Source: Mobula hypostoma (Eukaryota). Taken from it: 64,000 bases of DNA. The notes under the pieces were generated by a model. It had not been told where the DNA came from. It made no database searches and saw nothing but the letters and a program-made list of their open reading frames with translations. Within the stretch, counting starts at the first letter, position 1; the number at the start of each line of letters is the position of its first letter. The stretch spans positions 70,310,001-70,374,000 of the forward strand of contig NC_086097.1 in NCBI RefSeq assembly GCF_963921235.1, given 5' to 3'. The translations under genes were made by a program, and so were the position numbers. Below are positions 5,406 through 52,997 of the stretch, in pieces.

Positions 5406-5530
5406 GGAAACTGTCCTGTAAACTGGAAAATACATTGATTCTCCACACCACAAGGAAAATGAAAGCTCCTCCGACATTTTCTAATGGCACAGCCTATTGA
5501 TGCCCCACGCATCTTGCACACCCGACATTT
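5406..5530 (-). CDS. G2E3: G2E3 exon ([41 protein letters not shown])
   Basis: 125 nt with canonical splice sites. Contains the ePHD motif GASIGC...C.RS.HFPCG....CIFQFTG. Confidence 0.95.
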
Positions 5531-6103
5531 CTACAAAAATAAATTGGAAATGAAGCATTTGATCCCATATATCTTTGAAATAAAATCCAATAACCTGAGC
5601 AAATATAAAATGCAAATAGGCTGACCCCACCTCATGACTGAGAAGAACAACATAGGAGGAGGGGGAAGAGGCAGTGGGTGAAGTAATCAACCACAAATTA
5701 TAAATAATAAATAGCTGCTAACAATTTCAGAATTCCTGTGGTTTAAATACATGATTATATTTGTCAAAGCAAACAAATCAACTGCTGCAATTTACCAATC
5801 ACTGGATCCTGTAATTTTATATTAATTAATTTTATAGGCAGAAAAGTAAATTCAATCCTACTAAATTAAACTTTGTAAAGCCCAGGACTTCATGGAAAGC
5901 CTGATTAAATGTTACATTCAACAATAACGTACATTTATATTTACATTTCAGTGTCAGGAGGCTGATGAAAATTAAAAGATGCTGGTAGGATGAATAAGTT
6001 TTGGGGAGTGAGACAATGAGGTCACCACACAAGGAGATGTTTGAAAGGATGAGAAATGATCAATTAAAAAGGGAGGAATGACAAAGAACAACTTTTCATT
6101 AGC

Positions 6104-6266
6104 AAACAACAGGAATTCTGCAGATGCTGGAAATTCAAGCAACACACATAAAAGTTGCTGGTGAACGCAGCAGGCCAGGCCAGGGTCTCGGCCTGAAACG
6201 TCGACTGCACCTCTTCCTAGAGATGCTGCCTGGCCTGCTGCGTTCACCAGCAACTTTTATGTGTGT
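6104..6266. mobile_element. Miniature inverted Penelope-end insertion (hairpin)
   Basis: Perfect 39-bp inverted arms at 6142-6180 and 6228-6266, with the same sequence as the ends of the 11.3-12.6 kb element. TSD aacttttcatta(g/a)c at 6090-6103 and 6267-6280. Confidence 0.85.
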
Positions 6267-7065
6267 AACTTTTCATTAACTAAGTTTTAGCAAAGCCCTC
6301 AATGAGATGAGGTTTCTGGTTGTGGTCAACGGAGAAAATCATCTAGGAGAGTTTTATAATTGTCAAATGAAGCTGAAAGACCTTCGGTAAGAGTTTCAGA
6401 TGCATACAGACTGTGCAGAAGCAGAAATAAAGGACATCATGAAGTAGAGGTTGGTGCTTACTGTTACAGAGAAAATAAAAGTTCAGAAGCTGAGCTCACA
6501 GTTGGTAGAACACTGAAATTTACCCAAAGTAATGCAGAATTTGGGATTGAATCAGTTAAAGATTGAGAAAAGGAACACCAAGACTGTTAATATTAATTTT
6601 TCACCTAAAAGTGGACAGAACCACAAATACCATAAAATGGGTGCCAAAATCCTATTCTACATAATCAAGAATGGAAGCACCCTATTAATTTACTGAAAAC
6701 TTCAAAACAGAATGTAATTACTCCCTGCATCATCATTTGATGGTGACACTTCACTATTTAACTAAATTTTCCTTATGATGCTTATGCCATCTGCCTTGTA
6801 CAAACTGCAAGTGGCAGCGTGGCCTCTCATTACTATATCACACTTTAGCTGATTGCTATTCAAATTGTACCTACTCCATGTGTTCTTCTATGTTTCTATC
6901 TGTTAGAAATCTCAAAAACCAGTATGACCAAAATGCCATACCATGATTTTGTTAACATAACTACTGTTTTTACTGCCCTTGACTGTTGCCCTCTACAATT
7001 TTGGAATTTCAATTGAAATGGAGCATTGTGGAAACCAGTTTAATAAAATTGTGCATTATACTTAC

Positions 7066-7167
7066 CATTCTTGAAGCTCTAGAAATTTCCTTTTTGATAT
7101 CATGAGCCAGAAATCCATAAATTCCTTCATTCTCTTCTCCACGTTGATACAAGCCACTTGACATAAT
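7066..7167 (-). CDS. G2E3: G2E3 exon ([34 protein letters not shown])
   Basis: 102 nt with ag|...|gtaagt. Matches G2E3 MSSG..QRG...EG.YGFL..DI.KE..RAS. Confidence 0.95.
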
Positions 7168-10100
7168 CTACAAAGTCAAATTTAACAATCGTTTTGATTT
7201 GGAGACCACAAGATAAAATTCAATACAAATTATAACTTTTCAAAAATCTTATTAAAAGAACTATCAATGGTACCCAATGCCTTTTTAAAAGGATGACTAC
7301 AACATCTTCAGAAACACAGTTATCATAGTTATAAGGGATCCTATGCAACAAAATACCCTCATCCAAAATATGGTTTACCATACCCATCCTCCAATAATGG
7401 CTTGCCAGCATCATCCTGATCTGTGGGTTTATACTAGCCATGTTTCATTCTTAATCAGATGATCATCCACAATGCTATCTCTTCCAACTCCTACAATGCT
7501 ACCTATCATCGACAATCCACGTGCTAAAGCAATAACTTAGCATGAGGAAATGAATATTCAAATCAAAACATGTAAATATGAACAGAAACATTTACCCATC
7601 TAAAAAAAATTTTATTAATTTTTTTATTGCAACACCCAACAAATTACATTCAATACAACCAATTGCCAATTACACTTTGACTGTTTATCCCAGCCACCCC
7701 CCCTCCCCTCCACCAACCAACTGAATAGTAGTACATACACAGACAATGCATTCCTATTTTAACAAAACATCTCTTAAGTTAGATATCAAATTTGTCCACA
7801 TTGTGTTTGGTCGTGCATCATTTACTCTTGCTGATGAAAGTTCCAGGTATGAAATGTCCAAAAAGCTCCGAAGCCAGTGAGTATTTGAAATATCATGGGG
7901 AGGTTTCCAACGCTGAACTACAATCTTCTTAGCTGCAGTCAGGCCTGCCAGCTAGATTTTGCGTGTTTTTTCCATAAGGGAAAGGTGGGAGTCATCATTT
8001 AGAAGATGTACAGTTGGGTCCATTGGTAATTGTACCCCTGTTAGTTCTGTAAGAGTACTGATAATCTTCCCCCACAAACCAAAAACCCCTGGACATTCCC
8101 ATACAACATGTATAAAAGAGCCAATGGCTCCATGGGGGCAAAATGAGCAATATGGGCCAGGAACCAGTCCCATTTGATGTCTAATTCTCGGTGTTAAATA
8201 TGGTCTATGACAAAATTTCAAGTGTATATATCGATGATTTGGGTTTTTCGAAGCACCGGCATCATTATCCCAAATCGCATCCCAGTCTAAGTCTTGTCCC
8301 AATTCAGATATGTCCCTATCCCAGGCTTTCATTCCTGATGTGGGCATATATTTCTGGGAGTTTAATTTATCATAGGTAAATGACACTACCTGTCCTGGAG
8401 CACTCTGTATCCAACTTAAAATGGGATGGACCTTTAAATCTGACCCCCAGGGAACGCTGTAGACTTTACAAGCTGATCTTACTCAAAAGTAGAAGAAAAG
8501 AGAGTGTTTATCAATATCATATCGAGATATCAGTTCTTGAAAGCTAAGGATAGTACTTGCCCCATTAATATCTTGAAGAGTAGTAATACCTTTATCCTCC
8601 CAAGTGAATGGTTTCCCCCCAGAGAGAAAACGATTATAGTTCCATAATGGAGATGATTTGCACCATACGCTTTTAAGTTTTAGGAATTTTTCTGCTGCTC
8701 TAAACACTTGTAGCATATGGGTTAAAATTGGACCGTAATACAAATCAGATTCTTTGGTAGACATACCTATCAGGAGAAAGTCTTTCAACTTTATTGGCGC
8801 TATTAGCTCTTGTTCTATATTTTTCCATGATGAAACTTCATCTTCCTCCATCCAATAGCTAAGACTTTTTAATACAAATGCCCAGTGATACAATTTAAAA
8901 TTTGGACATGCCAATCCCCCATCTGACTTTTTGAATTGTAGAGCTGACCATTTTTTATTGGGTCATTTATCATTCCAAACTTACCATTCCTTACCATTCG
9001 TAGTAAGGAGTCCAGTTTTTGCCAATATCCTGCTAGAGGTGCAAGTGGGATCATTAAGCTGATAAAATTAATGCGGGGTAAGATGTTCATTTTAATGACC
9101 AATATACGGGCTGGGACTGATGCTGGCAGGTGTCTCCATCTATTAATATCTTCTATTTTTTTTTTCAAAATTAAACAGTAATTTGTTTTAGCCACAGATG
9201 ATAGAGAAGTATTAACTTTAATACCCAAGTAGAGGACCTTATTTGTAATCTTAATCTGGGGAGGGAGAGACACCTTACTTTTATCCGTATTAATCAGCAT
9301 CAGTGCTGATTTTGACAAATTAACTTTGTATCCTGAAAGAAATCCAAATTGCTCCAGTGTTTTTAAAACATAGGGGAGAGTTTGTTGAACATTTGCCATA
9401 TAAACTAGCGTGTCATCCATGTAGATATCGAATGTGATGTTGTACCTATTGTAATAGGGGAGATCTGAGAAGAGTTTCTAATTAAATGTGCGAGTGGTTT
9501 AATAGATATAGTAAAAGTTAAAGGAGACAAAGGGTCCCCTTGTCGTGTGTCCCATCCTATGTCAAATAATTCTGAGAAACCTCCTCCCACACATACCCGG
9601 GCTGAAAGGTTAGCATACGGTGTTTGAATCATATTGATAAGTTTATCGCCGAACTTAAATTCTTTTAGAACTCTCCAAAGCTATGGCCATTCAAGGCAAT
9701 CGAACGCTTTTTCAGCATCTAGAAATAGCAGGCCACAGGCAGGCGGGATTTTATGTGTTGCACTCAGTATGTGTAAGAGCCGGTGAATATTATCAGATGT
9801 GAGACGCCCCCTGATAAAGCCAGTTTGATCTGGGCTAATTATTTTCCCAACTACTGTCTCAAGTCTACTGGCTAAGACTTTGGGAAATATCTTGAGGTTG
9901 GCATTTATCAAGGAGATTGGACGGTAATTGGCACACTGCAAGGGGTCCTTACTGGGCTTAGGTATAACTGTGATCAGGGCTGTGTTTAGATCTCTATGGA
10001 AAGCGCCATTTCCAAAAGCATAATTTAATGTTTCTAACCATACTGGTCCAAGAATATCCCGAAGTGCTAAAGTTCCACAGGTATGCCATCTAAACCTGGC

Positions 10101-11368
10101 GTATGGCCCTTATTTGTATCTTTGACTGCTTTAAGTAGCTCATCCAGTGTAATAGGAGAGTCTAGAGTTTTGGTGTTCTCTAATGACAATGTAGGGAGGT
10201 CTAATCCACTAAAAAAATCTGTGAAGTCATTCTCAGAAGGAACTGAACCACTTGTATACAGCTCTTTAAAGTAATTCTTGAATGTCTCGTTTATTTCCTC
10301 TGTTGAAGATACTACTCCACATTCAGGACATCTACTCGCTGGTATAGACCTTTTAGCTTCCTGTTGTTTGAGCGTTAGAGCTAAAAGATGGCTCCGTTTG
10401 CTGCCTTCTGCGTAATACTTATGTTTAGTTATATGGATCATATATTTTGCCCTGCTTCTCAATAAATCATTTAATTCTGCTCGTTTTGTTTTGAGCTCGT
10501 TTTCTTTTGTTAAAACCTTACATTCTTCTTCTAGGGTGGAAATCTTTTGAAGCTGGCTTTTATGTAGGTGGGAACTAAAATATATGGCATTATTTCTTAA
10601 GAAACCCTCGATGGAGGCCCAAATCACTGTCACATCTGAGACATTATTTTTATTTAAATTTATAAATTCTGTCAGTTTTGTTCTCCGTTGTGATAGAAAT
10701 TAGTCTTTTTTTTTAGAAGGGTGGAGTTAAACCTCCACCTAGTAGCTTCATTTTCAATTTTGGCATAATTAAAAGTAGATATGACTGGGTTGTGATCAGA
10801 TAGATGTCTGGGCAAAAATTCTATTGAGTGCACTAAAGGCAGCACACCGGAGGATATAAGAATGTAATCCATCTGAGAGAAAGTTTTTAATGTCTTATGG
10901 AGAAGAAGGTATAGTCTTTAGCAGATGGATTATTCACCTTCCACACATCAGTTAAATTTAAATCCGTTAGAGAAAGGTTAAGTGCTTTGGAAGCAGATTC
11001 TTGAGAGCTTGATATAGTTGAGCAAGGTTTATCGAAATTAATGTTTACCAAAGCATTCGTGTCCGAACCAACATATAGTTGGTAGTCTCTTAACTTCAGT
11101 AGTTGTGAGGTAATTGAGGGAAAAAATTCAACCCCGAATATAGTTGGGGCATATAGGCTAATGAATGCAACTTTCTCTTAAAAAGCTAGACGTCCTTTAT
11201 TGACTGCGCCAGTCCTTTCAATTCATACATTAATATTACGTCTCATTAATATCATAACTCCTTTTGTACGAGTACCATCAGCTGATGCAACAACGGGTTT
11301 ATAAAGCAACACACATAAAAGTTGCTGGTGAACGCAGCAGGCCAGGCAGTATCTCTGGGAAGAGGTGC

Positions 11369-11404
11369 AGTCGACGTTTCAGGCCGAGACCCTTCGTCAG
11401 GACT
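11369..11404 (-). ncRNA. Minimal type I hammerhead ribozyme motif (PLE pLTR), sense to G2E3
   Basis: Reverse complement reads AGTC-CTGACGA-AGG gtctcgg CCT-GAAAC-GTC-GACT. Confidence 0.8.
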
Positions 11405-12435
11405 AACTGAAGGAAGAGCTAGTAAGAGATTTGAAAGTTGGAGGGGGAGGGGGAGGGGGAGGGGGAGATCCAAAATGATAGGAGAAGACAGGAGGGGGAG
11501 GGATGGAGCCAAGAGCTGGACAGGTGATAGGCAAAAGGGATACGAGAGGATCATGGGACAGGGAGTCTGGGAAGAAAGACAAGGGGGAGGGGGGGACCCA
11601 GAGGATGGGCAAGGGGTATATGCAGAGGGACAGAGGGAGAAAAAGGAGAGTAAGAGAAAGAATGTGTGTATAAAAATAAGTAACAGATGGGGTACGAGGG
11701 GGAGGTGGGGCATTAGCGGAAGTTAGAGAAGTCGATGTTCATGCCATCAGGTTGGAGGCTACCCAGACGGAATATAAGGTGTTGTTCCTCTAACCTGAGT
11801 GTGGCTTCATCTTTACAGTAGAGGAGGCCGTGGATAGACATATCAGAATGGGAATGGGATGTGGAATTAAAATGTGTGGCCACTGGGAGATCCTGCTTTC
11901 TCTGGCGGACAGAGCGTAGGTGTTCAGCAAAGCGGTCTCCCAGTCTGTGTCGGGTCTCGCCAATATATAAAAGGCCACACATTTTAATTCCACATCCCAT
12001 TCCCATTCTGACATGTCTATCCACGGCCTCCTCTACTGTAAAGATGAAGCCACACTCAGGTTGGAGGAACAACACCTTATATTCCATCTAGGTAGCCTCC
12101 AACCTGATGGCATGAACATCGACTTCTCTAACTTCCGCTAATGCCCCACCTCCCCCTCGTACCCCATCTGTTACTTATTTTTATACACACATTCTTTCTC
12201 TCACTCTCCTTTTTTCTCCTTCTGTCCCTCTGAATATACCCCTTGCCCATCCTCTGGGTCCCCCCCCCCTTGTCTTTCTTCCCGGACCTCCTGTCCCATG
12301 ATCCTCTCGTATCCCTTTTGCCTATCACCTGTCCAGCTCTTGGCTCCATCCCTCCCCCTCCTGTCTTCTCCTATCATTTTGGATCTCCCCCTCCCCCTCC
12401 CACTTTCAAATCCCTTACTCACTCTTCCTTCAGTT

Positions 12436-12471
12436 AGTCCTGACGAAGGGTCTTGGCCTGAAACGTCGACT
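12436..12471 (+). ncRNA. Minimal type I hammerhead ribozyme motif (PLE pLTR)
   Basis: AGTC-CTGACGA-AGG gtcttgg CCT-GAAAC-GTC-GACT. This gives stem I, the conserved CUGANGA and GAAA core, stem II, a palindromic ACGU stem III and a GUC cleavage triplet. Confidence 0.8.
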
Positions 12472-14664
12472 GCACCTCTCCTAGAGATGCTGCCTGCCCT
12501 GCTGCGTTCACCAGCAACTTTTATGTGTGTTGCTTGAATTTCCAGCATCTGCAGAATTCCTGTTGTGTACGGATTTATAAAAGCGGTTTTGAACCCTGGG
12601 AATGTCATTAGGTGTAAGATGTATTTTCTGTAACAGCACGATATCTATTTTCTTTCTGCGTAAGAAATCTAAAACCTTTGAACCCTTGTAGGGAGAGTTT
12701 AATCCTCTAACATTAAATGATACAATAGTAAAATTTTCTAATTTATCTGTGTTGCTCATCTTCCCCTGGATCTGTTGTTGTAAGTTGGTGGTGGAGCCCT
12801 GAGTTACCCACTTCCCACCCCCCTCCCATCACTCCTTGCTTTGTAACATCTGTGAGTGTTACTTAGCAATGTCAGACACTGAACATTGACATTAACTGCC
12901 CCCCTCTAGCACCAACAAATTAGAAAGGCAAAGCAGTTCTCATAGACAATCATATCAAAGAGACAAGAAAAAAGAAACCTGGACAAACTCCTTAACCTAT
13001 ATAATTAAAACCATTTCCGTCTCAAATACAGTGTAAAACAATCAAGATCCCAACAGCTATCTTGCAAGAAACTGTAGCTTTAATAGACTGGCGCTTAGCG
13101 ATGGCGCCAGTGACGTCTTATCTGGTGCCCAGGAACATAAACAAGTCTACTGGAGACATAACGTTCTAAAGTTATTCAGAACAACCTGCTGTTTTTCAGC
13201 TTCATTCTTGATGAAGTATTACATTTGGGTATATTGAATATCACCTTAAAACTCTGACCTGCAATACTCAGAAACAAATTGGACCCTTAATTAACTGAAT
13301 ACAAAAGTGCAACGATTGACTTTCCAATAAAAGAATAACCAGAAAACTTCACACCCAGGACGTTAACTTGTCCATGCCTGTTAGATTGCACATACAGGCT
13401 GGTCCGAGCCTGTTAATGCAGTTCCATCTCCTCCCGAGGGATGAGTGGACTTTACCCAGGGTCTTCTACCTTATCTCCCAGCACCAATGACTTCAGAGCT
13501 TCTTTCGCTTCCTCTGCCGAGTTAAACGACATCTTCATGCCCTTGATATTTACTCTCAAAATCGCTGGATAGGGGTAGATCCCCTTCTGTTGAAGCTTAG
13601 CACGAATCTCCTTGCATCCCTGCCGTTCTTGCATCGTGCTGGGGCTGTAGTCGGCTAAGAACTGCAGCTGGGTGCCATCAGGGAGAGTAGGTTTGGCTTT
13701 CCTCGTGCCCCCCAGGATAGCCTGCCAGTCGGTGTACCATAGAAGCCTAAAATCTATGGTCTGCGGTCTTGAGGTGTTGTTGGAAAAGATCCTATGTGCT
13801 CTATCGATCTCCAATGGAGTGCTGTGGGAATTCTTGAGCGCTGGAATCCAATTAGGCAGCATCTTCTGGAGGTAACCTCTTGGATCATTGCCCTCAGCAC
13901 CTGTCAGTAAGTTGACCAGCCGCACATTGTTTCTCCTGGATCTGTCCTCCAAGTCGTTTAGCTTCTTCCATATCTTAGTCACCTCCGCAAGACAGGAGTT
14001 AGTAACTTTCTCATTCTTGCGTAAACAAACCTGAACATTGTCTATTTTGTTGAAGACCGTGCTAAATTTTTTTTTAGCATGGATGTCCGCTTGCTCCTTT
14101 AACGACTGGAGAATGTTGCCATTCTCTGCCATATGCTTCTGTACGGGGTCGAGAGCCTTTTCCAGCGACTCCTTAGCATGTGGGCTACCGTTTTTTGCAG
14201 CGATTCCATCTCCGTTGCCATTGTTTGCTTAATTAGCATAGCTATTTCCTCGGATGAATTGCTAGCTTGGTGTTGTCTGCTAGTATCTTGTTTCCTGGTT
14301 GAATTTGGATCTTTTTTTGAAGTCATGTCTTTAGATAGACCTTTCTCCAACTCAACCTTGTATTAAGACCGTCTATGAGCCCTAAAGAACTTGAAAAAGA
14401 AAGGTTATATGTCAGCGCTCAGTGCTGTGCTGCCATCTTGCCTCATGCCTCACCAGAAGTCCCTAAAAAAAATCTTATGTTTAAAAATCTTACTGTTTCT
14501 ACAGATTATACAGCAATTGACTTGCATATATTTGACAATACCATTTCATCTGAAGATCCACAATCAAAGAAACCAGATAATTCAGTTACAATCTGAGTGG
14601 CTGATGAAATAAAATCAACATTTCTGTTCAAAGGCTTTTATTGTATTTACATAAATGTTTGGTA

Positions 14665-14960
14665 CTGCACAGTAGCTAGTAGAATAGGCACGTTAAAGCT
14701 CCAGCAATCCAGGTTCATCCCTAGCCTCCAGTGCTGTTTGTATACAGAGTATGCACATGTTTTTCATTTTCTTGTGGGTTTCCTCCGAGGCTTCCAGTTG
14801 ACACCCACATACAAAAAAAAAAGAGGATTGGTGGGTTATTGCCACTGAAAATTGTCTACAAGTGTATGAACTGTTAGAGTAAAATGGGATTAGCATAAAA
14901 GTAGTGCAGGTAAGGAACTGATCTTCAATGCAGACTTGGTGAAACTCAGGGCTGCTTTTG
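14665..14960 (+). mobile_element. tRNA-derived V-SINE-like element, decayed
   Basis: tRNA-like head (gcacagtagctagt...ccaggttcatccc) plus a V-domain-like gtgggtttcctccgaggcttccagtt. Confidence 0.55.
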
Positions 14961-15000
14961 GGCTGCGTGACTCAGAGTATTGTATTAATAGTGAGAACAC

Positions 15001-16497
15001 GTGAGAAGACAGCTGAAACGCCTCAACCCAAGCAAGGCTGCAGGACCGGATGGTGTCAGTACCAGGGTGCTCAAAGCCTGTGCCCCTCAGCTATGTGGAG
15101 TACTTCGCCATGTCTTCAACCTCAGCCTGAGGCTCTGGAGGGTTCCTGTGCTGTGGAAGACGTCCTGCCTCGTCCCTGTGCCGAGGACGCCGCGCCCCAG
15201 CGGCCTCAATGACTACAGACCGGTGGCATTGACCTCCCATATCATGAAGACTCTGGAGAGACTTGTTCTGGAGCTGCTCCGACCTATGGTCAGGCCACAC
15301 TTAGATCCCCTCCAGTTCGCCTACCAGCCCCAACTAGGAGTTGAGGATGCCATCGTCTACCTGCTGAACCGTGTCTGTGCCCACCTGGACAAGCCAGCGA
15401 GCACTGTGACGGTCATGTTTTTTGACTTCTCCAGTGCGTTCAACACCATCCGCCCTGCTCTGCTGGGGGAGAAGCTGACAGCGATGCAGGTGGATGCTTT
15501 CCTGGTGTCATGGATTCTTGATTACCTGCTTGCAACACTGTGTGTCCGACAGAGTGATCAGCAGCACTGGGGCTCCACAGGGGACTGTCTTGTCTCCCTT
15601 TCTCTTCACCATTTACACCTCGGACTTCAACTACTGCACAGAGTCTTGCCATCTTCAGAAGTTTTCTGATGACTCTGCCATAGTTGGATGCATCAGCAAG
15701 GGAGATGAGGCTGAGTACAGGGCTACAGTAGAAAACTTTGTCACATGGTGTGAGCAGAATTATCTGCAGCATAATGTGAAAAAGACTAAGGAGCTGGTGG
15801 TAGACCTGAGGAGAGCTAAGGTACTGGTGACCACTGTTTCCATCCAGGGGGTCAGGGTGGACATGGTGGAGGATTACAAATACCTGGGGATACGAATTGA
15901 CAATAAACTGGACTGGTCAAAGAACATTGAGGCTGTCTATAAGAAGGGTCAGAGCCGTCTCTATTTCCTGAGGAGACTTGACGTCCTTTAACATCTGCCA
16001 GACGATGCTGAGGATGTTCTACGAGTCTGTGGTGGCCAGTGCGATCATGATTGCTGTTGTGTGCTGGGGCAGCAGACACCAACAGAATCAACAAACTCAT
16101 TCGTAAGGCCAGTGATGTTGTGGGGATGGAACTGGACTCTCTCACGGTGGTGTCTGAAAAGAGGATGCTGTCCAAGTTGCATGCCATCTTGGACAATGTC
16201 TCCCATCCACTACATAATGTACTGGTTGGGCACAGCACTACATTCAGCCAGAGACTCATTCCACCGAGATGCAACACAGAGCGCCATAGGAAATCATTCC
16301 TGCCTGTGGCCATCAAACTTTACAACTCCTCCCTTGGAGGGTCAGACACCCTGAGCCAATAGGCTGGTCCTGGACTTATTTCCTGGCATAATTTACATAT
16401 TATTATTTAACTATTTATGGTGTTATTACTATTTATTTATGGTGCAATTGTAACGAAAACCAATTTCCCCCGGGATCAATAAAGTATGACTATGACT
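15001..16497 (+). mobile_element. Rex1/Babar-type LINE, 5'-truncated
   Basis: KAAGPDG, DYRPVALTSHIMK, LDPLQFAY, DFSSAFNTI, GAPQGTVLSP, KFSDD. 3' end AATAAA followed by (TATGAC)2. Confidence 0.92.
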
Positions 16498-16659
16498 AAT
16501 CACAGAAATAGTGAATGAGGCATGCAAAATTATCTTCTTTCAATATTGGGCCAAATGTCCGGTTCCAAAAGAATAACCGGAGAATGGATCACTTTTCATA
16601 ATAGAAAAAAAACTAGGCACCCCAATAAAAATAATCAAGGAATAATAGGAAAGGACCTT

Positions 16660-16850
16660 CCACCATCCTCCTCCTCCTTTCCATCCTCCACCTATTTATT
16701 TTGGCATCTTCCCCCTTCCCTTCAGTTCTGAAGAAGGGCCTTTGGCCCACAACACTGATTCATTTCCACGGATGCTGCCTTACCTGCTGAGTTCCTCCAG
16801 CATTTTTGTATGTTATTGAAAATTTCCAGCAGATTTTCTTGTGTTTACAA
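16660..16850 (+). mobile_element. Decayed Penelope pLTR fragment with degenerate hammerhead motif
   Basis: cagttCTGAAGAagggcctttggcccACAAC...gatgctgcc..acctgctgagttcctccagcatttt. Confidence 0.6.
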
Positions 16851-19572
16851 TTGGAAAGGAACTACTTAGAACATCACTAAACACCAAACATATCAATGAC
16901 CTGTCATAAAATTCTCTGGATCAGATAGATATCCAGCATCATAGAGTCTTCTTGGAAACAGCTGGAGACAGTGGATGCATTGTTGTAATCAATTAAAAAT
17001 TCTCTCTATTCCGGGCATGATTGAAAAGCTATAAATGCAAGGCCATAATATAAGGAAGAAAGGGGATGCAAAGCCTGAAAGTTCAAGCCAGCTACCTTGA
17101 CACCTGTCATTGGGAATATACTGAATTCACTGAGGTGGGAATGAGGCCATTTAGAAATTAAAAAGATGATCAAAGTCAATATTGTTTCGAGAGGGGAATA
17201 GTGTTCCACAAATCTGCTCACATTCCTTCAGAATGTATTAAACAGTGCAGGAAGGAAAACCAATGTTTTAATTTTTAGAAGGCATTTGATAAGGGACCAC
17301 ATAAAAGATTATTTTAGAAGGTTAGGGAACCAACTACATAAAAATTCTGAGCAACTGGAGTGATTCTCCTAACAGAAAGGAAGCTTAAGGATAGCAAGAG
17401 ATGTTCAAAAATCACGTAGAAATAATGGGAAAAACTGTTTCTAATGACAGAAAAATCTCAATCTTTAATAAAGCTCCAATAATTCATGATTATTCCAGTG
17501 AACATAAAAACAAGGGATTTTTTTTGGACATGGCAAACTTTGAAGATAAATGTTTTAAATGCTTTAAACATAACCATCCACATTGTGAAGATGTACATTC
17601 ATATTCTACCAGAACTGTGGGTGTAGTTACATCTACCAATTCTATCGTGGATAGACATTTCTGCCACAGGATGAAATCAAGATGGCTGTGCTGGTTTCCA
17701 CACTACCTGCTAAAGACCCAGTCTGGCAACTACTGTATATCCTTCAGTCAGCACTGTTATAACCAACCCATTCCCATTGGGAGTACATTCTGTAGCCTTG
17801 CTATAATTTAATTGGCCAAAGGAGGACAACGGATGGTAATCCAGAGGAAGTTTTGCCTTGATTCTCTAAGAATGGAATCAAAGGACTCCACATCTGTACA
17901 CCATTCATTGCTTTTGGTGGGTCCTATTTGCTAAAAGGATAGAATAAACCAGAATTATTATAGAAAAGTCTGTTGTATTGTCTGCAAAGCAAGTTTCTGT
18001 GACTACAACGAGATCAGGCTATGAGACAGACGTTAATCCTAGATATTTGATAAGGTTAGCTGGATGGCGAAAAACTCAAATCCAGTTTTTAGGATTAATG
18101 CCAAGTAGTCCACCTGGTTTTATTCATGTTCTGTGAGTTGAGTAATGGTACGAGCCAGTTAAGAGTCAATCACATGGGGCACCTAAAGTCTAAACCAGGT
18201 AAGGATGGCAGATTGCATCCTAATTCTGAATTCAAATTCCACAGTTGGTTTGGTGGCATTTCAATCAAGAGTTCTGGATTGTTATTCAGTCCAAACATAC
18301 GGTTTCCTATTCCAGTAACTGCAGCACTGATCAAGTGGCAAAGTCCTAAAATCAGAACTGGCAGCCACCATCTTAGCCCAGACTCTTACCTAAAGGAATG
18401 TGGCTTATTGTGGACTAGATTTTGGAGTCAGCTGACACAGAAAAGCACCCTCATGTCTTTGATATCCCAGGACAATTTGTACTGGGAATGGAGTGAAAAA
18501 TAAAATCCTTGCAAGTCTCATCACATGAACTTAATCAATTCCCACAATTTTTGTTTCGATAATTGCAGGAAGTTGGAACTAGAGGGGCCAATGTGATTGA
18601 GCTGAACAAAGTATGAGGGGTACTGGAGCAGTAAAGTACATTTGCTGTAATAATCGCTGGTGTACACACTAGCTCTATAGTCACTGATACCTTTTACATC
18701 CTCAGGGGTTCACTACAAGAGTTGCCTCAATTTGGAGCAATTCACAAATAACAACCAGATTTCAAGTGGCACAATCATAAAGCCTGTTCCCAGACCACTG
18801 ACGGCCAATTGTACTATTAAAGACCTATAAAGACCCTTTCTACCCTCTCAAGATATCCCTGATGAGATCAAATCTATGTCCCATTCTGCACTTCAAAGGC
18901 TTGTACACATTGTAGGCAGCCAACAGTTCTTCATGGAACTGACAGATGGCCACCAATGTGATCTGGCCCATTAGATGCTCATGGAAAATCCAAACTTGAA
19001 ATACTTGTTTTTCCTAGTACCCAATTGTTATGCTGCTTTACCCACTGCTTTAAACAGGTAACACAACTGCCTCTCAGCTCCAGTAGTGCAGGATCAATGC
19101 TGACCTTGGGTGCTGTGTAGACATTTGCATGTTTTTCTTGAGAGTGCAAGGATACTTCGATTTCATCCCAAAGTGCTGGTTGCTAGCTAAGTCACTACCA
19201 GAATAGGGGTTGTTATCAGGCATGCAAGACAGAATATATTATAGTGAACAGAATAGATTACATGGGATTCCTGGCAGCTGGTAGTCTTGATACCGAAAGC
19301 CTCCCATGTCATATGCTGTTGTAGAAAAAAAGAATGTTTCCTACCTGTCCTAATGTAGTAAACTCACGCTGGAAGAATATAATTGATGCCATTCATATGT
19401 TGGTAACTTGCTTAAATATGCATTTTATTACACTAATTTGAAGCACAGCAAAGCATAGAATAGCGGACACCAGTCAGCCTGATCCAGTCCTCCTTTCATT
19501 GGACACTTTCTGGCAAAGCATACAACTGAGCATCATAACAGATTCTCTTGGCAAGTGTTTTTAAAGTAAATA

Positions 19573-19726
19573 CAGGTCAACCTTCACTAATCCGACTACC
19601 TGTAATCCGGTTCCTTCGATAATCTGGCACTGATTATGCTTAATGTGATCCTTCTGTAATTCGGAATTTTCACTAATCCGGCACTCCTCAGTTCCCAATG
19701 GTGCTGAATTAGTGAAGGTCGGCCTG
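19573..19726. mobile_element. Tc1-mariner (Tigger/pogo-like) MITE, 154 bp
   Basis: TA|CAGGTCAACCTTCACTAAT...ATTAGTGAAGGTCGGCCTG|TA, giving terminal inverted repeats and a TA duplication. Confidence 0.9.
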
Positions 19727-19914
19727 TAGTAGGATAACAATTCATCTCACTCATTCAAGGCTAACAATCAAACATAGGATGTTTTGGCCTAAATTTTCAA
19801 CTTCAAAAATACTTTTTAGAAACAAAATCCCCTAGGAGTATAATAACCATTTAAGTTCAGTTAATTCATTATACTGAAAATAGGAAAATAAATTAAAAGG
19901 TGGCTTAAACCTAC

Positions 19915-20009
19915 TAAGCAGTAGTAATGCACAGTTATCCCACCATCACAGGTCTTCTTCTCGCCATACTTTTCTGGGCAGTCATCATTCCGTCGACAAA
20001 ATGCACAGG
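19915..20009 (-). CDS. G2E3: G2E3 exon, start of extended PHD ([31 protein letters not shown])
   Basis: Bounded by tttttgtag| and |gtaggt. The translation matches the G2E3 motif CxFC..DDCP.KYGEKK...TVHYYCL. Confidence 0.93.
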
Positions 20010-22491: not shown

Positions 22492-23336
22492 CAGGTTTCC
22501 CCCACTATCTGAAAGTAGAGCATTCCTATGAAACCTTTCGTAAGCCGAAATGGCGTAAAGCGAAGAAGCAATTACCATTAACTTATATGGGAAAAATTTT
22601 TGAGCATTCCAAGACCCAAAAAATAACCTACCAAATCAAACCAAATAACACATAATACCTAAAATACCACTAACATGTAGTAGAAGCAGGAAGGATATGA
22701 TAAATACAAAGCCTTTATGAAGTAGAAATAACAGAGGCAAATTCAACGCATGCACAATGTCTTTATTTTGTTCACCACGATTGAAACACTTAATTACGTC
22801 TTGCTGCTTGGGGCGCTCCGCTCCGCTCGGGGCGCTGCGCTCAGCTCAGCTCCGCTCCGCTCGGGGCGCTGCACTCAGCTCCGCTCCGCTCGGGGTATGC
22901 GCTCAGCTCAGCTCCGCTCGGGGCGCTGCGCTCAGCTCAGCTCCGCTCGGGGCGCTGCGCTCAGCTCAGCTCCGCTCTGCTCTGCTCGGGGCGCTGCGCT
23001 CAGCTCCGCTCCGCTCGGGGCGCTCCACTCCGACCGGGGCGCTGCGCTCAGCTCCGCTCCGGGCGCTGCGCTCAGCTCCGCTCGGGGTGCTGTGCTCAGC
23101 TCCGCTCCGCTCGGGGCACTGCGCTCAGCTCCGCTCTGGCTGCTCGGGGTACGCGCTACCTCTATAATGGCTCACTGCAAAACAAACGCTGAACGCTATT
23201 TTCGCGTTTCGCCTTTTTTCATAAAAGCGAAAATTCTCTTCAGATTTCTTTCGGTTAGCGAAAACAGGTACTAATGTAGGTCTTTCGTAAAAGCGAAGTG
23301 GCGTAAAGCGAACTTTCATAAAGCGGGGGATACCTG
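22492..23336. mobile_element. Tigger-like MITE carrying a GC-rich minisatellite
   Basis: 25-bp TIRs CAGGT(T/A)TCCCCC(A/G)CT..TGAAAGT, with TA on both flanks. Confidence 0.85.
22809..23148. repeat. CpG-rich tandem repeat built from GCTCC/GCTCA/GGGGC/GCTGC pentamers (~25-30 bp higher-order unit)
   Basis: Repeated ggggcgctgcgctcagctccgctccgctc. Confidence 0.95.
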
Positions 23337-28380: not shown

Positions 28381-29740
28381 TGAAGCCAAGATCAATCCAG
28401 CAACTCCAAATTAATTCCCTAGCTCTTTAGCTACAGTTGAAAAACCTAGTTACAAGCCCAACCTGTAGACAGTAATAAACAATGTAATCATGGGGTGTTT
28501 CAATTGATCCAAGTTAGACATATACTGTATCTCCATTTAAATTACTACTGATGACAAATTATAAATCTCTTCTTTGCCCAAGCAGAGCATCAATCACTTA
28601 CACTCGTCATTCAATCTCAACTCAATCTTCTTCCTACATCTTCTGGCTATAAGATATCCAGGCCAGACAGGCAGTGGCAAATCCTCTGAAACATCTCAGC
28701 AACTTTCCACTGCCTATAAATTCAGCAGTATGATGAAATATCACAGTACTTCACAGAAAAAATAAACAATTCTCAATGAGTTTGAAAATATCTGGAACAA
28801 AGCAGCCCACTTTATTGCTCTGCAAACTAGCGATTATTTCACTGCAACTACATAGCTGTTACAATATACACATCCCAAAACAGTTACTCCAACAGTACCT
28901 TCCTAAGCCACAACCTACCATGCTTTTTATGCACACTTTGAAAGGGAGAATAAAACTCTCTTGTTCTGTGCAAATCCCTGCAGCATCCAGTCACCTTGTG
29001 ATCTCTGTCTCGGAGGCCAACATCAGAACATTTTTCAAGAGGGTGAACCCTTGCAAGACACCTGGCCCTGATGGTGTACCTAGTAGGGTTTGGAAAACCC
29101 GTGCCATTTACAACTGATGAAACTGTTCAGGACATCTTCAATCTTTCACTATTGCAGTCAGAGATTCTCACCTGCTTCAAAACGGTGACAATCATATCAG
29201 TACCCAAGAAGTTGAGGATGATCTGTCTCAACGACTATTGCCCAGTGGCACTCACAGCTACAGTGGCTGGTCATCAATTCCTGCTTAAGCAAGTATCTGG
29301 ATATCTGGACCAGCTACTTTTTGCCCATTGCCACAATAGGTCTACAGCAGATGCAATCTCAATGGCTCTCTACGCGGCCTTGGTAATACAGGTCCAGGTT
29401 GACCTTCTATAATCCGGCACCATTGGGACCTGAGAAGTGCCGGATTAGTGAAAATGCCAAATTACAGAAGGATCACATTAAGCAATAGCTAACCGCCTCA
29501 TCATACCATTAAAATATAAAAAGATTCAAAGTTTCATTTAATGTCAGAGAAATGTATACAATATACATCCTGAAACCCCCAAGATCCCCCCCACTCCCCT
29601 CCCTCCTGTGCGTAAACAGCAGCGAGCAACAATCCCGCCTCCCCACCGGCAAAAAATAAAGTGCACCCACTACCAGCACTCAGGCGTGAGCTAAGCAATA
29701 GCAAGGACACAGACTTGCGGTTATCCCGAAGACTACATTG

Positions 29741-29835
29741 CACTCGCAGTTACTGAAGGAATCCTTGTTAGTCTCTTTTCCTCCACTTAGTAATATGCTT
29801 AAATTCAGCGGGTCACCACGTCTGATCTGAGGTTG
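29741..29835 (-). pseudogene. 28S rRNA 5'-end fragment (dispersed pseudogene)
   Basis: Minus strand reads CAACCTCAGATCAGACGTGGTGACCCGCTGAATTTAAGCATATTACTAAGTGGAGGAAAAGAGACTAACAAGGATTCCTTCAGTAACTGCGAGTG. This is the universal LSU 5' end (LR0R/ITS4 primer region) with CpG-decay substitutions. Confidence 0.93.
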
Positions 29836-29988: not shown

Positions 29989-31157
29989 TAAATATTAAGA
30001 AATGCAGGAAAACAAGCAGGAATCACCTGTCTGTGCTTACAAGAGTGTGCCAATATGTGAACAGATCTAGCGCAACCAAAACAATGAGCAGCAGTTTGGT
30101 ATGGTGGCCCATAAAATTTGAAATTACGGTTGCACAGAAAATTTGAAATCAGTGCGGATTATTGAAGGAACTGGATTACAGGTAGTCGGATTAGTGAAGG
30201 TCGACCTGCACCTACATCAAGCTGCTGTTTATTGACTACAGCTCAGCGTTCAACACAATCATACCCTCTGTTCTAAGATCTGGGCCTCTATACCTTCCTC
30301 TGAAACTGGATCCTTGACTTCTTCACAGGGAGACCACAGTCTGTGCAGATCAGAAATAACATCTCCTCCTCACTGACAATTAACACTGGCACACTTCAAG
30401 GATGCATGCTTAGCCCATTGCTCTACTCTCTCTACACCATCAATTGTGTGTCTAGGCACAGCTCAAAACCATCTATAAATTTGTTGACAACACAATTACG
30501 TTGGCAGAATTTCAGACGTTTTACAAGGAGGCATATAGGAGTGAGCCAGACCAGCTGGTTGAGAGGTGTCGCAGCAACGACCTTGTAGTCGATGTCAGTA
30601 AGACTAAGGAATTGACTGTGGACTTCAGGAGGGGCAAGTTGGGAACACACAAGAGTCCTTATCGAAGAATCAGCAATGGAAAGGGTGAGCAGTTTCAAGT
30701 TCCTGGCTGTCAACATCTGAGGATCTATCCTGGACCCAGTATATTGATGCAATTACAAAGGCGGCATGATGGCATCTATATTTCATTTGGAGTTTGAGGA
30801 GAATTGGTATATCACCAAAGGCACTCGCAAATTTCCACAGATGTATTGTGGAGAGCATTTCAACTGGTTGCATCACCGTCTGGTATGGAGGGGCCGTTGC
30901 ACAGGATTGGAAAAAGCTCAGCCAGCTCCATCATGGGCGCTGGCCTCCTCAGCATCCAGGACACATTCAAAAGGCGAAGCCTCAAAAAGGCGGCATGCAT
31001 CACTAAGGACCCCTATCACCCCGTAGATGCCTTCTTCACATTGCTATCATCAAAAAGGTGGGTGACAGGAGCCTGAAGACACACACTCAACATTTTAGGA
31101 GCAACTTCTTCCCCTCTGCCTTCAGATTTCTGAATGGACAATGAAACCATGAACCAT

Positions 31158-33954
31158 CTCCAGTGTGACCAGGGATGGGAGCTCAACGTTCAGGGATATT
31201 CAATATTCAGGAGGGATAGACATGAAGGAAGGGGAGGTGGGGTGGCGTTGCTGGTTAAAGGAGAGATTAACACAATAGAAAGGAAGGACATAAGCCGGGA
31301 AGATGTGGAATCGATATGGGTAGAGCTGCGTAACACTAAGGGGCAGAAGACGCTGGTGGGAGTTGTGTACAGGCCACCTAACAGTAGTAGTGAGGTTGGA
31401 GATGGTATTAAACAGGAAATTAGAAATGTGTGCAATAAAGGAACAGCAGTTATAATGGGTGACTTCAATCTACATGTAGATTGGATGAACCAAATTGGTA
31501 AAGGTGCTGAGGAAGAGGATTTCTTGGAATGTATGCGGGATGGTTTTTTGAACCAACATGTCGAGGAACCAACTAGAGAGCAGGCTATTCTGGACTGGGT
31601 TTTGCGCAATGAGGAAGGGTTAATTAGCGATCTTGTCGTGAGAGGCCCCTTGGGTAAGAGTGACCATAATATGGTGGAATTCTTCATTAAGATGGAGAGT
31701 GACATAGTTAATTCAGAAACAAAGGTTCTGAACTTAAAGAGGGGTAACTTTGAAGGTATGAGACGTGAATTAGCTAAGATAGACTGGCAAATGACACTTA
31801 AAGGATTGACGGTGGATATGCAATGGCAAGCATTTAAAGGTTGCATGGATGAACTACAACAATTGTTCATCCCAGTTTGGCAAAAGAATAAATCAAGGAA
31901 GGTAGTGCACCCGTGGCTGACAAGAGAAATTAGGGATAGTATCAATTCCAAAGAAGAAGCATACAAATTAGCCAGAGAAAGTGGCTCACCTGAGGACTGG
32001 GAGAAATTCAAAGTTCAGCAGAGGAGGACGAAGGGCTTAATTAGGAAGGGGAAAAAAGATTATGAGAGAAAACTGGCAGGGAACATAAAAACGGACTGTA
32101 AAAGCTTCTATAGATATGTAAAAAGGAAAAGACTGGTAAAGACAAATGTAGGTCCCCTGCAGACAGAAACAGGTGAATTGATTATGGGGAGCAAGGACAT
32201 GGCAGACCAATTGAATAATTACTTTGGTTCTGTCTTCACTAAGGAGGACATAAATAATCTTCCAGAAATAGTAGGGGACAGACGGTCCAGTGAGATGGAT
32301 GAACTAAGCGAAATACATGTTAGTAGGGAAGTGGTGTTAGGTAAATTGAAGGGATTGAAGGCAGATAAATCCCCAGGGCCAGATGGTCTGCATCCTAGAG
32401 TGCTTAAGGAAGTAGCCCAAGAAATAGTGGATGCATTAGTGATACTTTTTCAAAACTCGTTAGATTCTGGACTAGTTCCTGAAGATTGGAGGGTGGCTAA
32501 TGTAACTCCACTTTTTAAAAAAGGAGGGAGAGAGAAACCGGGGAATTATAGACCGGTTAGCCTAACGTCGGTGGTGGGGAAACTGCTGGAGTCAGTTATC
32601 AAGGATGTGATAACAGCACATTTGGAAAGCGGTGAAATCATCGGACAAAGTCAGCACGGATTTGTGAAAGGAAAATCATGTCTGACGAATCTCAGAATTT
32701 TTTGAGGATGTAACTAGTAGAGTGGATAGGGGAGAACCAGTGGATGTGGTATATTTGGATTTTCAAAAGGCTTTTGACAAGGTCCCACACAGGAGATTAG
32801 TGTGCAACCTTAAAGCACACGGTATTGGGGGTAAGGTATTGGTGTGGGTGGAGAATTGGTTAGCAGACAGGAAGCAAAGAGTGGGAATAAACGGGACCTT
32901 TTCAGAATGGCAGGCGGTGACTAGTGGGGTACCGCAAGGCTCAGTGCTGGGACCCCAGTTGTTTACAATATATATTAATGACTTGGATGAGGGAATTAAA
33001 TGCAGCATCTCCAAGTTTGCGGATGACATGAAGCTGGGTGGCAGTGTTAGCTGTGAGGAGGATGCTAAGAGGATGCAGGGTGACTTGGATAGGTTGGGTG
33101 AGTGGGCAAATTCATGGCAGATGCACTTTAATGTGGATAAATGTGAGGTTATCCACTTTGGTGGCATAAACAGGAAAACAGATTATTATCTGAATGGTGG
33201 CCGATTAGGAAAAGGGGAGGTGCAACGAGACCTGGGTGTCATTATACACCAGTCATTGAAAGTGGGCATGCAGGTACAGCAGGTGGTGAAAAAGGCAAAT
33301 GGTATGCTGGCATTTATAGCAAGAGGATTCAAGTACAGGAGCAGGGAGGTACTACTGCAGTTGTACAAGGCCTTGGTGAGACCATACCTGGAGTATTGTG
33401 CGCAGTTTTGGTCCCCTAATCTGAGGAAAGACATCCTTGCCATAGAGGGAGTACAAAGAAGGTTCACCAGATTGATTCCTGGGATGGCAGGACTTTCATA
33501 TGAAGAAAGACTGGATGAACTGGGCTTGTACTCGTTGGAATTTAGAAGATTTGAGGGGGGATCTGATTGAAACGTATAAAATCCTAAAGGGATTGGACAG
33601 GCTAGATGCAGGAAGATTGTTCCCGATGTTGGGGAAGTCCAGAACAAGGGGCCACAGTTTGAGGATAGAGGGGAAGCCTTTTAGGACCGAGATGAGGAAA
33701 AACTTCTTCACACAGAGAGTGGTGAATCTGTGGAATTCTCTGCCACAGGAAACAGTTGAGGCCAGTTCATTGGCTACATTTAAGAGGGAGTTAGATATGG
33801 CCCTTGTGGCTACGGGGGTCAGGGGGTATGGAGGGAAGGCTGGGGCGGGGTTCTGAGTTGGATGATCAGCCATGATCATAATAAATAGCGGTGCAGGCTT
33901 GAAGGGCTGAATGGCCTGCTCCTGCACCTATTTTCTATGTTTCTATTTTTCTAT
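31158..33954 (+). mobile_element. Young CR1 LINE (EN-RT ORF2 with two frameshifts), 5'-truncated
   Basis: ORFs of 523, 282 and 118 aa with RGGGVAL, YRPP, GDFN, SDH, KSPGPDG, YRPVSLTS, DFQKAFDKV, GVPQGSVLGP, FADD. (TTCTAT)n-type tail. Confidence 0.96.
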
Positions 33955-45172: not shown

Positions 45173-47087
45173 TGTAATGTATGGACCTATTTCTTTTAGA
45201 TCAATGACACCCCCCTATTAGCACTACGTATTGATATGTTGTCTGCACATGCACATTTCTTCCCCTCTCCCCCCCTCTCCCCCCTCTCCCCCCATCTCCC
45301 CCCATCTCCCCCCCTCTTCCCCCCCTTCCCCCCTCTTCCCCCCCTCTCCCCCCCTTCCCCCTCTCTCCCTCCCCCCCTCTCTCTTTCTCTCCAACTATGC
45401 AGAGATTGACCTTCAGTCTAGTATGGGGAATAAAGACCTTCCACCACCATCAGCCCCCTATGTCCAAGGAAGGGAATTCCAGTGATGACTGCTACCCAGT
45501 TACAACATTAAGCATTATTCCTAGGAGCCGACTCTTATGACATCGAGTTCAAGGGTACCAAACAACAGAGCAACACAGGTGGCAACTGAAGAAGGAAAGT
45601 CTTCGTACTGTGACCCAGCCAAAGTGTTTCACACCACATTGGTGGATCAGTTGCTTGTAACAAATTACAATATACAAAGGGAAGCAAAGAATTACCTGGC
45701 AATGTCAAAAGTCTATGAAATCACCATGCAAGGATAACCAGCTCATGGTAATCCTATGTTTTCAGAGTTCTCAGCGAGATGAGACCAACTGTTGGTATGT
45801 CAAAGGACACTGATTTGTGGATCTCCTGTTGTGGTTCCATCTAAACTGCACACTGGAGTGTTAGAAAATCTGCTGAAGGACACTTGGGTACAGATAAGAT
45901 GAAGGGTCTCGCCTGGAGCTAAGTGTGGTGGCTGGGAATAGGTAAACCAATTGCAGACTTGGCCAAAAGCTGTTTGGGTTGAAACAAAGTTCAAAATGCA
46001 CTCCTACTGGCACTGTTATATCTGTACACCACTTCACCATGGCAAAGAGTACGTATTGACTTTGCTGGGCTATTCATGGACTCGATATTTTTGATTGCTG
46101 TGGATGCTCATTGGAAGTGGTTGGAGGTTATACCAATGAAGTCAACCATGTCATCAAAGTCTGTCTCCGCTCTGAGGACTATCTTCACCAGAAATGGCTT
46201 ACCAGAACAAAGTGTGAGTGACAACGGACCACAATACACGTCCCAAGAATTCCAACTGTTCATGAAGAAAAATGGCGTCAGGCATTTCAAGTCAGCTCCT
46301 CACTACCCAGCAACAGATGGGTTAGCTGAAAGGTTGATCCAGACCTTCAAGAACTCCATTAAAGTGATGGACAATGAGGACATTTACAGCACAAGGTGGA
46401 CAACTTCCTTTTTTGTGTATTGGAACTCTGTTCATGCAACAATAAATCAAACACCTGCAATGCTATTCATGAGCAGGAATCTGAGATCTCGCACAAACCT
46501 CCTGAAACCAGACCTCTGGAGGGAAGTGCAGAATAAACAGTTCAGCCTGTTAGTGAAGCAGCAAGGAGCTTTGAGATTGGACAGGAAGTCCTCGTGCTTG
46601 ATTATGGAGAAGACAAGCTGACACCTGGCAGGATAGCTACAAGAACGGGATGCCGATGTACACAGTGGATGTTGGAGATCAAACATGGAGACATCATGTG
46701 GACCAAATTCTGAATGCTCAACTGAAGAACATACCTGAGTTGACTGGATTCAACAAGACGGACACATTAGAGTTACCGGATTTACCTTTCAGTGATGATC
46801 AGGTCACTGACAGCAACATGACACCAGAAACTGGTTGCATTGTCTTAGACAAGACACCTATCAAACCTGATACCACTTCACAGGTCCAGAGATGCAACAA
46901 GAACATTATCGTTGACAAGACACTGGACAAACTTGATGCCACTCGATAGGGCCAGAGAAGTTACTGATCTGTTGTCTGTACATACACCTTTTTCTCCCCC
47001 CTCCCCCCTCCTCCCCTCTCTCCCTCCACACCAGTTATAGCCATCTCCCATGTGCATGCTTTTATTTAATCAATATGTAATGGTACA
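45173..47087 (+). mobile_element. Internally deleted Gypsy-type LTR retrotransposon remnant (RNase H end plus integrase)
   Basis: Starts TGTAAT and ends ...GTACA. SYDIEFKGTKQ, then integrase VDAH.KW.EV, F.RNGLPEQ.VSDNGPQYTS.EF, SAP.YPAT.GLAER.IQTFK. Similar C-rich LTR-like segments at 45237 and 46968. Confidence 0.8.
45258..45392. repeat. C/T-rich low-complexity tract
   Basis: (CCCCCCTCT)n-like array. Confidence 0.9.
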
Positions 47088-51755: not shown

Positions 51756-52997
51756 ATTAGATTGGATTCAACTTTATTGTCATTGTGCGGAGTACAGATA
51801 CAAAGCCAATGAAATGCAGTTAGCATCTAACCAGAAATGCAAAGAATAGTGTTATTTACAAAATAACTGCAAATAAAAAGTAAGTGCTACAGCACACAAA
51901 TATAGAAGTACTGAGACAGTACAATATGGGTGCAATACTGCTTAGCGCTGTGATGTGAGGTTCAGCAGGGTCACAGCCTCAGGGAAGAAGCTCTTCTTGT
52001 GCCTGCTGGTGTGGGAGCGGAGGCTGCTGTAGTGCCTACCAGATGGGAGGAGAGTAAAAAGTCCATGGTTAGGGTGAGATGCATCCTTGATAATGCTTTT
52101 CGCCTTGCCCAGGCAGCGTTTATGGTAGAAGTTCTCAATGGTGGGCAATTGGGTGCCAATAATCTGCTGGGCAGTTTTCACCACACACTGGAGTGCTTTG
52201 CAGTCTGATACGGGACAATTGCCATACCACACTGAGATACAGTTGGTGAGTATGCTCTCAATGGTACAGCGGTAAAAGTCCATCAGTATCCTGGGACAGA
52301 GGTGAGCTTTCTTGATGCTCCACAGGAAATAAAGGTGCTGTTGTGCCTTTTTGATCAGGATGGAGGAGTTCAGGGACCAGGTGAGATCCTCGGAAATGTG
52401 GACACCGAGGAATTTGAAGCTTGATACACGCTCCACTACAGCTCTGTTGATGTAGATGGGGATGTGAGTGTGGCTCCTAGCATGCCTGAAGTCCACAATG
52501 ATCTCCTTGGTCTTCTGCGTGTTAAGGTCCAGGTTGCTGTCTGCACACCACGCGGCCAGGTGCTGGACCTCATCCCTGTAGGCCATCTCGTCATCCCCTC
52601 TGATCAGGCCAACCACCGTGGTGTCGTCTGCGAACTTGATTATGGAGTTAGAACCATGTATAGGAATGCAGTCATAGGTGAAAAGGGAGTACAGAAGAGG
52701 GCTCAGCACACAGCCTTGAGGCATGTTCGTGTTCAGGGTGAGAGTGGAGGAGGAGAGGTTGTCTAACTTAACTGATTGGGGTCTGTTAGTCAGAAAGTCC
52801 AAGGTCCAACTGCAGAGGGATGAGCTGATACCAAGCTGGCGAAGTTTGGCGATCAGCTTGGAGAGGATCACAGTATTGAATGCTGAACTTAAGTCAATGA
52901 ACAGCATTCTGATGTAAGAGTTGGGGCTGTCCAGGTGGGTCAGGGCAGAGTGAAGTGTCGTGGAGATGGCATCCTCTGTTGACTTGTTAGGGAACAC
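51756..52997 (-). mobile_element. Rex1/Babar-type LINE, 5'-truncated, with an uninterrupted 351-aa RT C-terminal ORF
   Basis: [52 protein letters not shown]. Tail ...ataaagttgaatccaatctaat. Confidence 0.93.

Follow-up and report, generated by a model that had tools for sequence, protein, structure and literature searches.

Minimal hammerhead ribozymes reside in the pLTRs of metazoan Penelope-like elements (PLEs), including Xena, Poseidon, and Neptune of fish, and loci with two motifs, one per strand and about 100-700 bp from each other, have already been published (Cervera & De la Pena, 2014; PMC4209133). The G10.1-C11.1 pair of these minimal motifs is highly conserved, not invariant; in vitro, the monomers showed no detectable cleavage and the dimers cleaved weakly (PMC4209133). 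PLE insertions typically have an inverted 5'-truncated partner copy and a one-sided tail of 30-40 bp, and a CX2-5CxxC linker precedes the endonuclease in the Neptune and Nematis groups and is absent from Penelope and Poseidon (Craig et al., 2021; PMC8557442). In Poseidon_Ac of the green anole, both target strands are cleaved and extended, and two adjacent reverse transcription start sites define the tail; cleavage by its hammerhead needs protein and is dispensable for insertion in vitro, and RNA ends were not found at its cleavage position in the anole data (Frangieh et al., 2024; PMC11167929). Retrozymes, which derive from PLEs, have been reported in one chondrichthyan genome, and more than 40% of the Xenopus retrozymes overlap introns, yet they are under-represented there (bioRxiv 10.64898/2026.07.22.740005).

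We analyzed two minimal hammerhead motifs, one on each strand, in a 64,000-nucleotide stretch of the genome of the ray Mobula hypostoma (contig NC_086097.1; hereafter the window), the features of which are collected in Table 1. In our reading, to which we give a probability of roughly 0.87, the locus is a single insertion of a Neptune-type PLE into a broken LINE, with two head-to-head arms inside a target-site duplication, which probably arose in one event and the ribozymes of which are probably inert in the host pre-mRNA.

Table 1. Features of the PLE insertion and of the surrounding G2E3 intron (positions in the window)
Feature	Position	Strand	Basis or remark
Minimal type I hammerhead motif	11369..11404 (11404-11369)	-	Predicted cut after 11373; sense in G2E3 pre-mRNA
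Minimal type I hammerhead motif	12436..12471	+	Predicted cut after 12467; antisense in G2E3 pre-mRNA
Left arm, 5'-truncated PLE copy	11304..11979	-	End of GIY-YIG ORF and 3' repeat with hammerhead; tail absent
Right arm, shorter 5'-truncated PLE copy	11973..12568	+	Begins within the endonuclease; 3' end complete
C-terminal 87 aa of PLE GIY-YIG endonuclease	11716..11976	-	87/87 residues match the C-terminal end of an RT+EN frame of 728 aa at another genomic site
Inversion junction	11973..11979	.	7-nt microhomology common to both arms
PLE "tail", 33 nt	12536..12568	+	Right arm only; for such tails, see PMC8557442 and PMC11167929
Left target-site duplication, 13 bp	11293..11305	+	Final 2 bases overlap the end of the arm
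Right target-site duplication	12569..12581	+	12/13 identical to left
Broken two-ORF LINE (AP endonuclease and RT pieces)	7950..14228 (about)	-	RVT_1 E 4.5e-14; Exo_endo_phos weak, E 0.0075
Coding exon of G2E3 preceding the intron	19915..20009 (homology 20007-19915)	-	Homology, GT/AG ends
Coding exon of G2E3 following the intron	7066..7167	-	Homology, GT/AG ends
G2E3 intron, 12.7 kb, phase 0, GT...AG	7168..19914	-	Residues 64/65 flank the intron; encloses PLE unit and LINE

Both motifs were found where the first-pass annotation had placed them. They are 36 nt long, differ by a single loop base, and have a complete core (C3 U4 G5 A6 N7 G8 A9 / G12 A13 A14 A15.1 / U16.1 C17), a stem I of AGUC/GACU, a stem II hairpin, and a loopless ACGU palindrome. 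The CUGANGA / GAAA / UH core of PLE minimal hammerheads was thus present in both copies, and so were the other published traits of these type I motifs: a short, open stem I of 4-5 bp, an extra 5' base in stem II between positions 9 and 10.1, the absence of helix III, and a palindrome at 15.1-16.1 (PMC4209133). The ray locus differs from those described in the same report in its spacing, 1,031 nt as opposed to about 100-700 bp, and in its host, as the main text of the report names no cartilaginous fish. Stem I and the palindrome were as first annotated, whereas stem II more probably contains a bulged A followed by G10.1·U11.1 and a 4-nt loop. We preferred this register to an A-U pair with a 7-nt loop because its predicted energy was lower (-6.0 vs -4.6 kcal/mol), because 7,757 exact copies in the genome carry G-C at this position, and because the published consensus has an extra base after A9 (PMC4209133). 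In both window copies, as in 41,158 exact copies of the genome, the position is G·U, for which the A-U register is also possible. The covariance-model check proposed at first pass was negative in that an Rfam scan of the window gave no hammerhead family (canonical, with helix III) at E ≤ 1, and the monomer folds were not more stable than those of shuffled sequences (z -0.8 to +0.3). A loose hammerhead pattern matched the window 13 times against an expected 7.0 ± 2.8, and therefore proves little by itself.

Pfam recognized neither the 88-aa PLE endonuclease fragment nor the first ORF of the LINE, and the fragment was identified through long copies. Two parent frames elsewhere in the genome, of 790 aa (L081) and 728 aa (L082), are single ORFs with a reverse transcriptase followed by a C-terminal GIY-YIG domain (RVT_1, E 2e-5; GIY-YIG, E 0.009; both under the Pfam cut-off). 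Each has a C-x4-C-xx-C linker upstream of GIY and, when the sequence was read directly, two cysteines between GIY and YIG (the CCHH motif of PMC8557442). The inverted 5'-truncated partner and the tail of 30-40 bp at one end, which are expected of an EN+ PLE, were found as well. By the sequence criteria of PMC8557442, the element is of the Neptune/Nematis type, which it resembles in the reverse transcriptase, the linker, the GIY-YIG domain with internal cysteines, the heavy 5' truncation, and the adjoining inverted copy with a tail at one end; from the vertebrate distribution given in bioRxiv 10.64898/2026.07.22.740005, we infer Neptune rather than Nematis. It differs from the insertions of PMC8557442 in that both arms are truncated and the full-length body is absent, and in that it entered the coding region of a LINE, not a microsatellite, and is flanked by a clear duplication of 13 bp. 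Taken with the GIY-YIG ends, the parent frames, and the traits listed in PMC4209133, the initial assignment of the motifs to minimal type I hammerheads of a PLE was borne out. The nearest database relatives came from rays, and a literature search, in which subscription journals were thinly covered, found no paper that, judged by title or abstract, describes this PLE family in sharks or rays.

The hammerhead in the repeat and the tail are also shared with Poseidon_Ac, which, however, belongs to another clade (Poseidon, without the Zn-finger linker) and has a hammerhead overlapping the start of its ORF; its cleavage was assayed, whereas the ray motif is known from sequence and predicted folds (PMC11167929). 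Non-LTR retrozymes likewise have a type I hammerhead of PLE origin but are non-coding head-to-tail tandems (bioRxiv 10.64898/2026.07.22.740005), and we rejected a retrozyme since the G2E3 unit is head-to-head and contains endonuclease coding sequence.

The host gene was identified by homology. The exon peptide was 96% identical to sawfish G2E3, all top matches were chondrichthyan G2E3 proteins, and a zf-HC5HC2H match was located at about 5417-5563 on the minus strand. Sawfish G2E3 mapped exon by exon, always on the minus strand, to 23856-23779, 20007-19915 (residues 34-64), 7167-7066 (residues 65-98), 5530-5405, about 3717-3546, 2444-2337, and 838-719, and the exons of residues 34-64 and 65-98 have GT/AG ends. 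Because residues 64 and 65 lie on either side of a GT...AG intron, homology confirms that both motifs are within one G2E3 intron and that the minus-strand copy is in sense, in agreement with the first-pass annotation on both points. The 19915-7167 splice was not among the joints listed (15 of 248) from contigs of four public sequencing runs, in which repeat-derived joints dominate. Between the first two mapped coding exons, at about 22720-23270, there is a GC-rich short tandem repeat with repetitive open frames.

Each motif is just part of an inverted repeat of about 580 bp (94% identity with gaps over 579 columns). The minimum-energy fold of the corresponding G2E3 pre-mRNA was predicted to be one hairpin, a near-perfect duplex of -1180 kcal/mol over 1321 nt, in which 35 of the 36 bases of the sense hammerhead are paired with the antisense twin. 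This pairing held at every length of growing transcript tried, and freeing the motif was calculated to cost 76 kcal/mol. In the pre-mRNA, the antisense arm would be made first, the sense arm would zip onto it while emerging, and a hairpin of about 580 bp would leave with the intron. Masking by the antisense arm, as proposed at first pass, is therefore predicted to be physically sound. The same duplex could itself affect G2E3 processing, by A-to-I editing or through splicing kinetics as with inverted Alu pairs of primates, while the ribozymes remain inert; such roles are known for inverted intronic repeats (PMC11263572). However, the hairpin encloses no exon, the splice sites are 4.1 kb and 7.3 kb away, and thousands of similar hairpins are expected in the genome, among which this one has no special feature, so we regard an effect of this kind as unlikely.

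We consider it very unlikely that the intron RNA is a self-cleaving one that is held by its antisense twin and regulates G2E3, cutting once editing or a helicase opens the duplex and a trans partner or the PLE protein is supplied. The intact core, the sense orientation, and the predicted masking would suit such a switch, the genome offers plenty of potential trans partners, the anole PLE hammerhead cleaves on addition of PLE protein (PMC11167929), and domesticated intronic hammerheads exist in amniotes (PMC6155905). Against it, the insertion is young and has the standard shape of its family, the conserved G10.1-C11.1 pair is replaced with G·U, the published monomers were inactive and the dimers weak (PMC4209133), and the anole data come without RNA ends at the cut site (PMC11167929). 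Unmasked, the motif would still be unlikely to cut, because it has no helix III, because its stem I probability in the local context without the twin was 0.003, and because the G2E3 intron lacks another sense-oriented family motif with which to form a dimer. In terms of secondary-structure energies, which exclude tertiary terms, a forced dimer hammerhead reached -9.5 kcal/mol, whereas the best alternative dimer fold reached -28.3 kcal/mol. Dimer cleavage has reportedly been described by Lunse and colleagues (2017; summarized in PMC6765202). There is probably little to mask, and the potentially self-cleaving intron of the first-pass annotation was not supported. Nor was its built-in ribozyme/anti-ribozyme pair, since head-to-head copies are the usual insertion product of the family and the sense/antisense order follows from geometry alone. 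We conclude that the motifs are likely inactive passengers and no switch for G2E3; the hammerhead probably serves the element's own cycle in tandem transcripts, assisted by a dimer or by protein, and not the host gene.

Intronic hammerheads of amniotes (RECK and others) resemble the ray copy in having a type I core inside a host intron, but they are conserved across birds and mammals and have tertiary contacts, whereas the ray copy is young, minimal, and one among tens of thousands (PMC6155905). A domesticated ribozyme of the RECK type was rejected given the lack of helix III, the stem I probability, and the low arm divergence, which suggests a young insertion.

The two motifs are the 3' repeats, at the outer ends, of a single head-to-head PLE insertion and not separate elements. 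What appeared to be a spacer between the arms is also filled by the left arm, and the right arm begins further inside the GIY-YIG domain than the left one. The insertion site is in the endonuclease region of the broken LINE, which we take to be L1-like. A public contig joins 12569 straight to 11292 with no insert between them; it shows the host LINE as an empty site and probably derives from another copy of that LINE. Over 562 positions, 17 substitutions separate the arms, in addition to indels, corresponding to a change of about 1.5% per arm. The arms also have 7 minority variants in common, as copies of one template would. Both findings argue for one event and a young insertion. An assembly fold-back artefact or two independent adjacent insertions would explain the inverted pair too, as long inverted repeats can trouble assemblers (PMC8557442) and the family has about one intact motif per 71 kb, but the differences and the common variants of the arms, their unequal ends, the clean junction, and the one target-site duplication around the whole unit led us to reject the artefact and make either origin hardly credible.

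For the single insertion that we favor, the architecture of the locus and the in vitro behavior of a Poseidon element lead us to infer two-nick priming. Nicks made by the element's endonuclease in the two target strands would be separated by about 13 bp, and each would prime a cDNA on the element RNA, starting at either of two sites that are about 33 nt from each other; both cDNAs would stop early and be joined at their ends via the 7-nt microhomology.

Across the genome, exact 34-letter patterns of the motif matched 48,915 times (the 41,158 copies with U at 11.1 and the 7,757 with C), while the reversed patterns used as controls gave 0 matches, and hence the motif is not due to chance. About 4,000 motifs were reported for coelacanth and about 9,000 for Xenopus (PMC4209133), with counting methods that differ from ours. 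Among the first 100 exact matches listed, which cover one 7-Mb stretch, neighbors within 3.5 kb formed 9 head-to-head pairs and 1 pair in each of the three other arrangements, compared with a random expectation of about 4.9 neighbors in all and about 1.2 per arrangement; inverted pairs hold 18 of these 100 matches. Extrapolated from this one stretch, fold-back PLE insertions with two intact motifs probably number several thousand in the genome. In a sample of 400 kb taken as four arbitrary blocks of 100 kb, head-to-head pairs accounted for 30 of the 50 element ends, a few old ones possibly by coincidence, and for 17 of the 21 young ones. Two head-to-head pairs of this sample have long arms like those of the G2E3 locus. 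Candidate target-site duplications of 10-15 bp were found at 7 of 8 young pairs by a search with wide offsets and without a shuffled control. The loci examined, a biased sample, contained 43 inverted junctions, of which 18 were split or ran off the edge of the locus; in 24 of the 25 scoreable inverted pairs, as at the G2E3 locus, one end was short and the other carried the tail. Microhomology of at least 6 nt was present at just 2 of the 43 other inverted junctions, indicating that end joining mostly needs little or none. The head-to-head pair is thus the usual insertion product of this PLE family. With this geometry, transcription of either strand yields the antisense arm before the sense hammerhead, and therefore the pair is uninformative about G2E3. 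In one inverted pair (G000:C1:187307604 / 187308707), both arms carry an identical rare variant of stem II, pointing to one template.

The state of the motif in the family was examined in 44 copies, the loci of which were chosen by endonuclease identity and not by the motif. All 12 core bases were kept in 36 of them, and the intactness of the motif therefore reflects youth. Non-CpG mismatches to the majority amounted to 3/435 in the core, 6/566 in the stems, and 93/6570 in the flanks, and CpG positions decayed alike. No significant extra conservation of the core over the flanks was detected in this small sample (Fisher p = 0.28); nominally, core positions mismatch half as often as flank positions, and weak selection on the core may exist. 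The stem changes were one-sided (G-C/G·U, U-A/U·G, and C-G/U·G). G10.3 was changed in 1,782 copies, with the pair restored, as judged by eye, in 5 of the first 100 listed. Covariation of stems I and II, also put forward at first pass as a check, was therefore essentially not seen within this genome, the family being young and uniform, and the variation of stems and core resembles what neutral decay would produce in copies derived from few templates, in a test that is weak for so young a family. U at 11.1, where a C is conserved in the published motifs (PMC4209133), was found in 84% of the exact motifs and in 41 of the 44 copies picked by endonuclease identity, while decay at other CpG sites was limited to 2-7%; the conserved G10.1-C11.1 pair seems to be missing already from the dominant template.

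The G2E3 locus itself is of little weight, being one among many fold-back PLE insertions, and its value lies in the family. The recurring pattern of a short end and a tailed end fits two-nick, two-start-site priming and would carry over to a Neptune-type element what was observed in vitro for the anole one. Given the 48,915 exact motifs, in vivo cutting by PLE minimal hammerheads becomes testable by statistics alone. One improbable scenario is genome-wide self-muting, in which intronic sense motifs of different nascent transcripts would dimerize in trans, or act with the aid of the PLE protein, and cut host pre-mRNAs; lone sense copies would be purged and fold-backs would survive, their ribozyme being silenced by the first-made antisense arm. 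If this were true, the G·U at 10.1-11.1 of the dominant subfamily would be a second attenuation.

Other relatives of the element were also present in the window. The next G2E3 intron contains a small fold-back of the same PLE family at 6106-6272, the plus arm of which starts inside the hammerhead and therefore lacks the CUGANGA box. A weak Rfam match to mir-1288 at 6152-6256 (E 0.22, 27 bits vs a 70-bit cut-off) was rejected, as it falls on this small PLE fold-back. Older, decayed ends of the same PLE with damaged hammerheads are located at 16666-16813, 54401-54498, 59400-59559, and 60347-60445. Several ray protein annotations (kinase-domain 1C, mucin-2, ATP synthase C3-like, and ABHD14A isoforms) include the PLE endonuclease fragment, reflecting either exonization or an annotation artefact. 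Elsewhere in the window, a fragment of the 28S rRNA 5' end at 29734-29812 on the minus strand (Rfam LSU, 69 bits) and related pieces near 19573-19726 are possibly an rRNA-derived repeat. Finally, long retroelement frames were found at 31134-33570 (+), 51942-52997 (-), and 45983-46621 (-), which we take to be LINE pieces with endonuclease/RT (523 and 294 aa), an RT of 351 aa, and a relic resembling an integrase.
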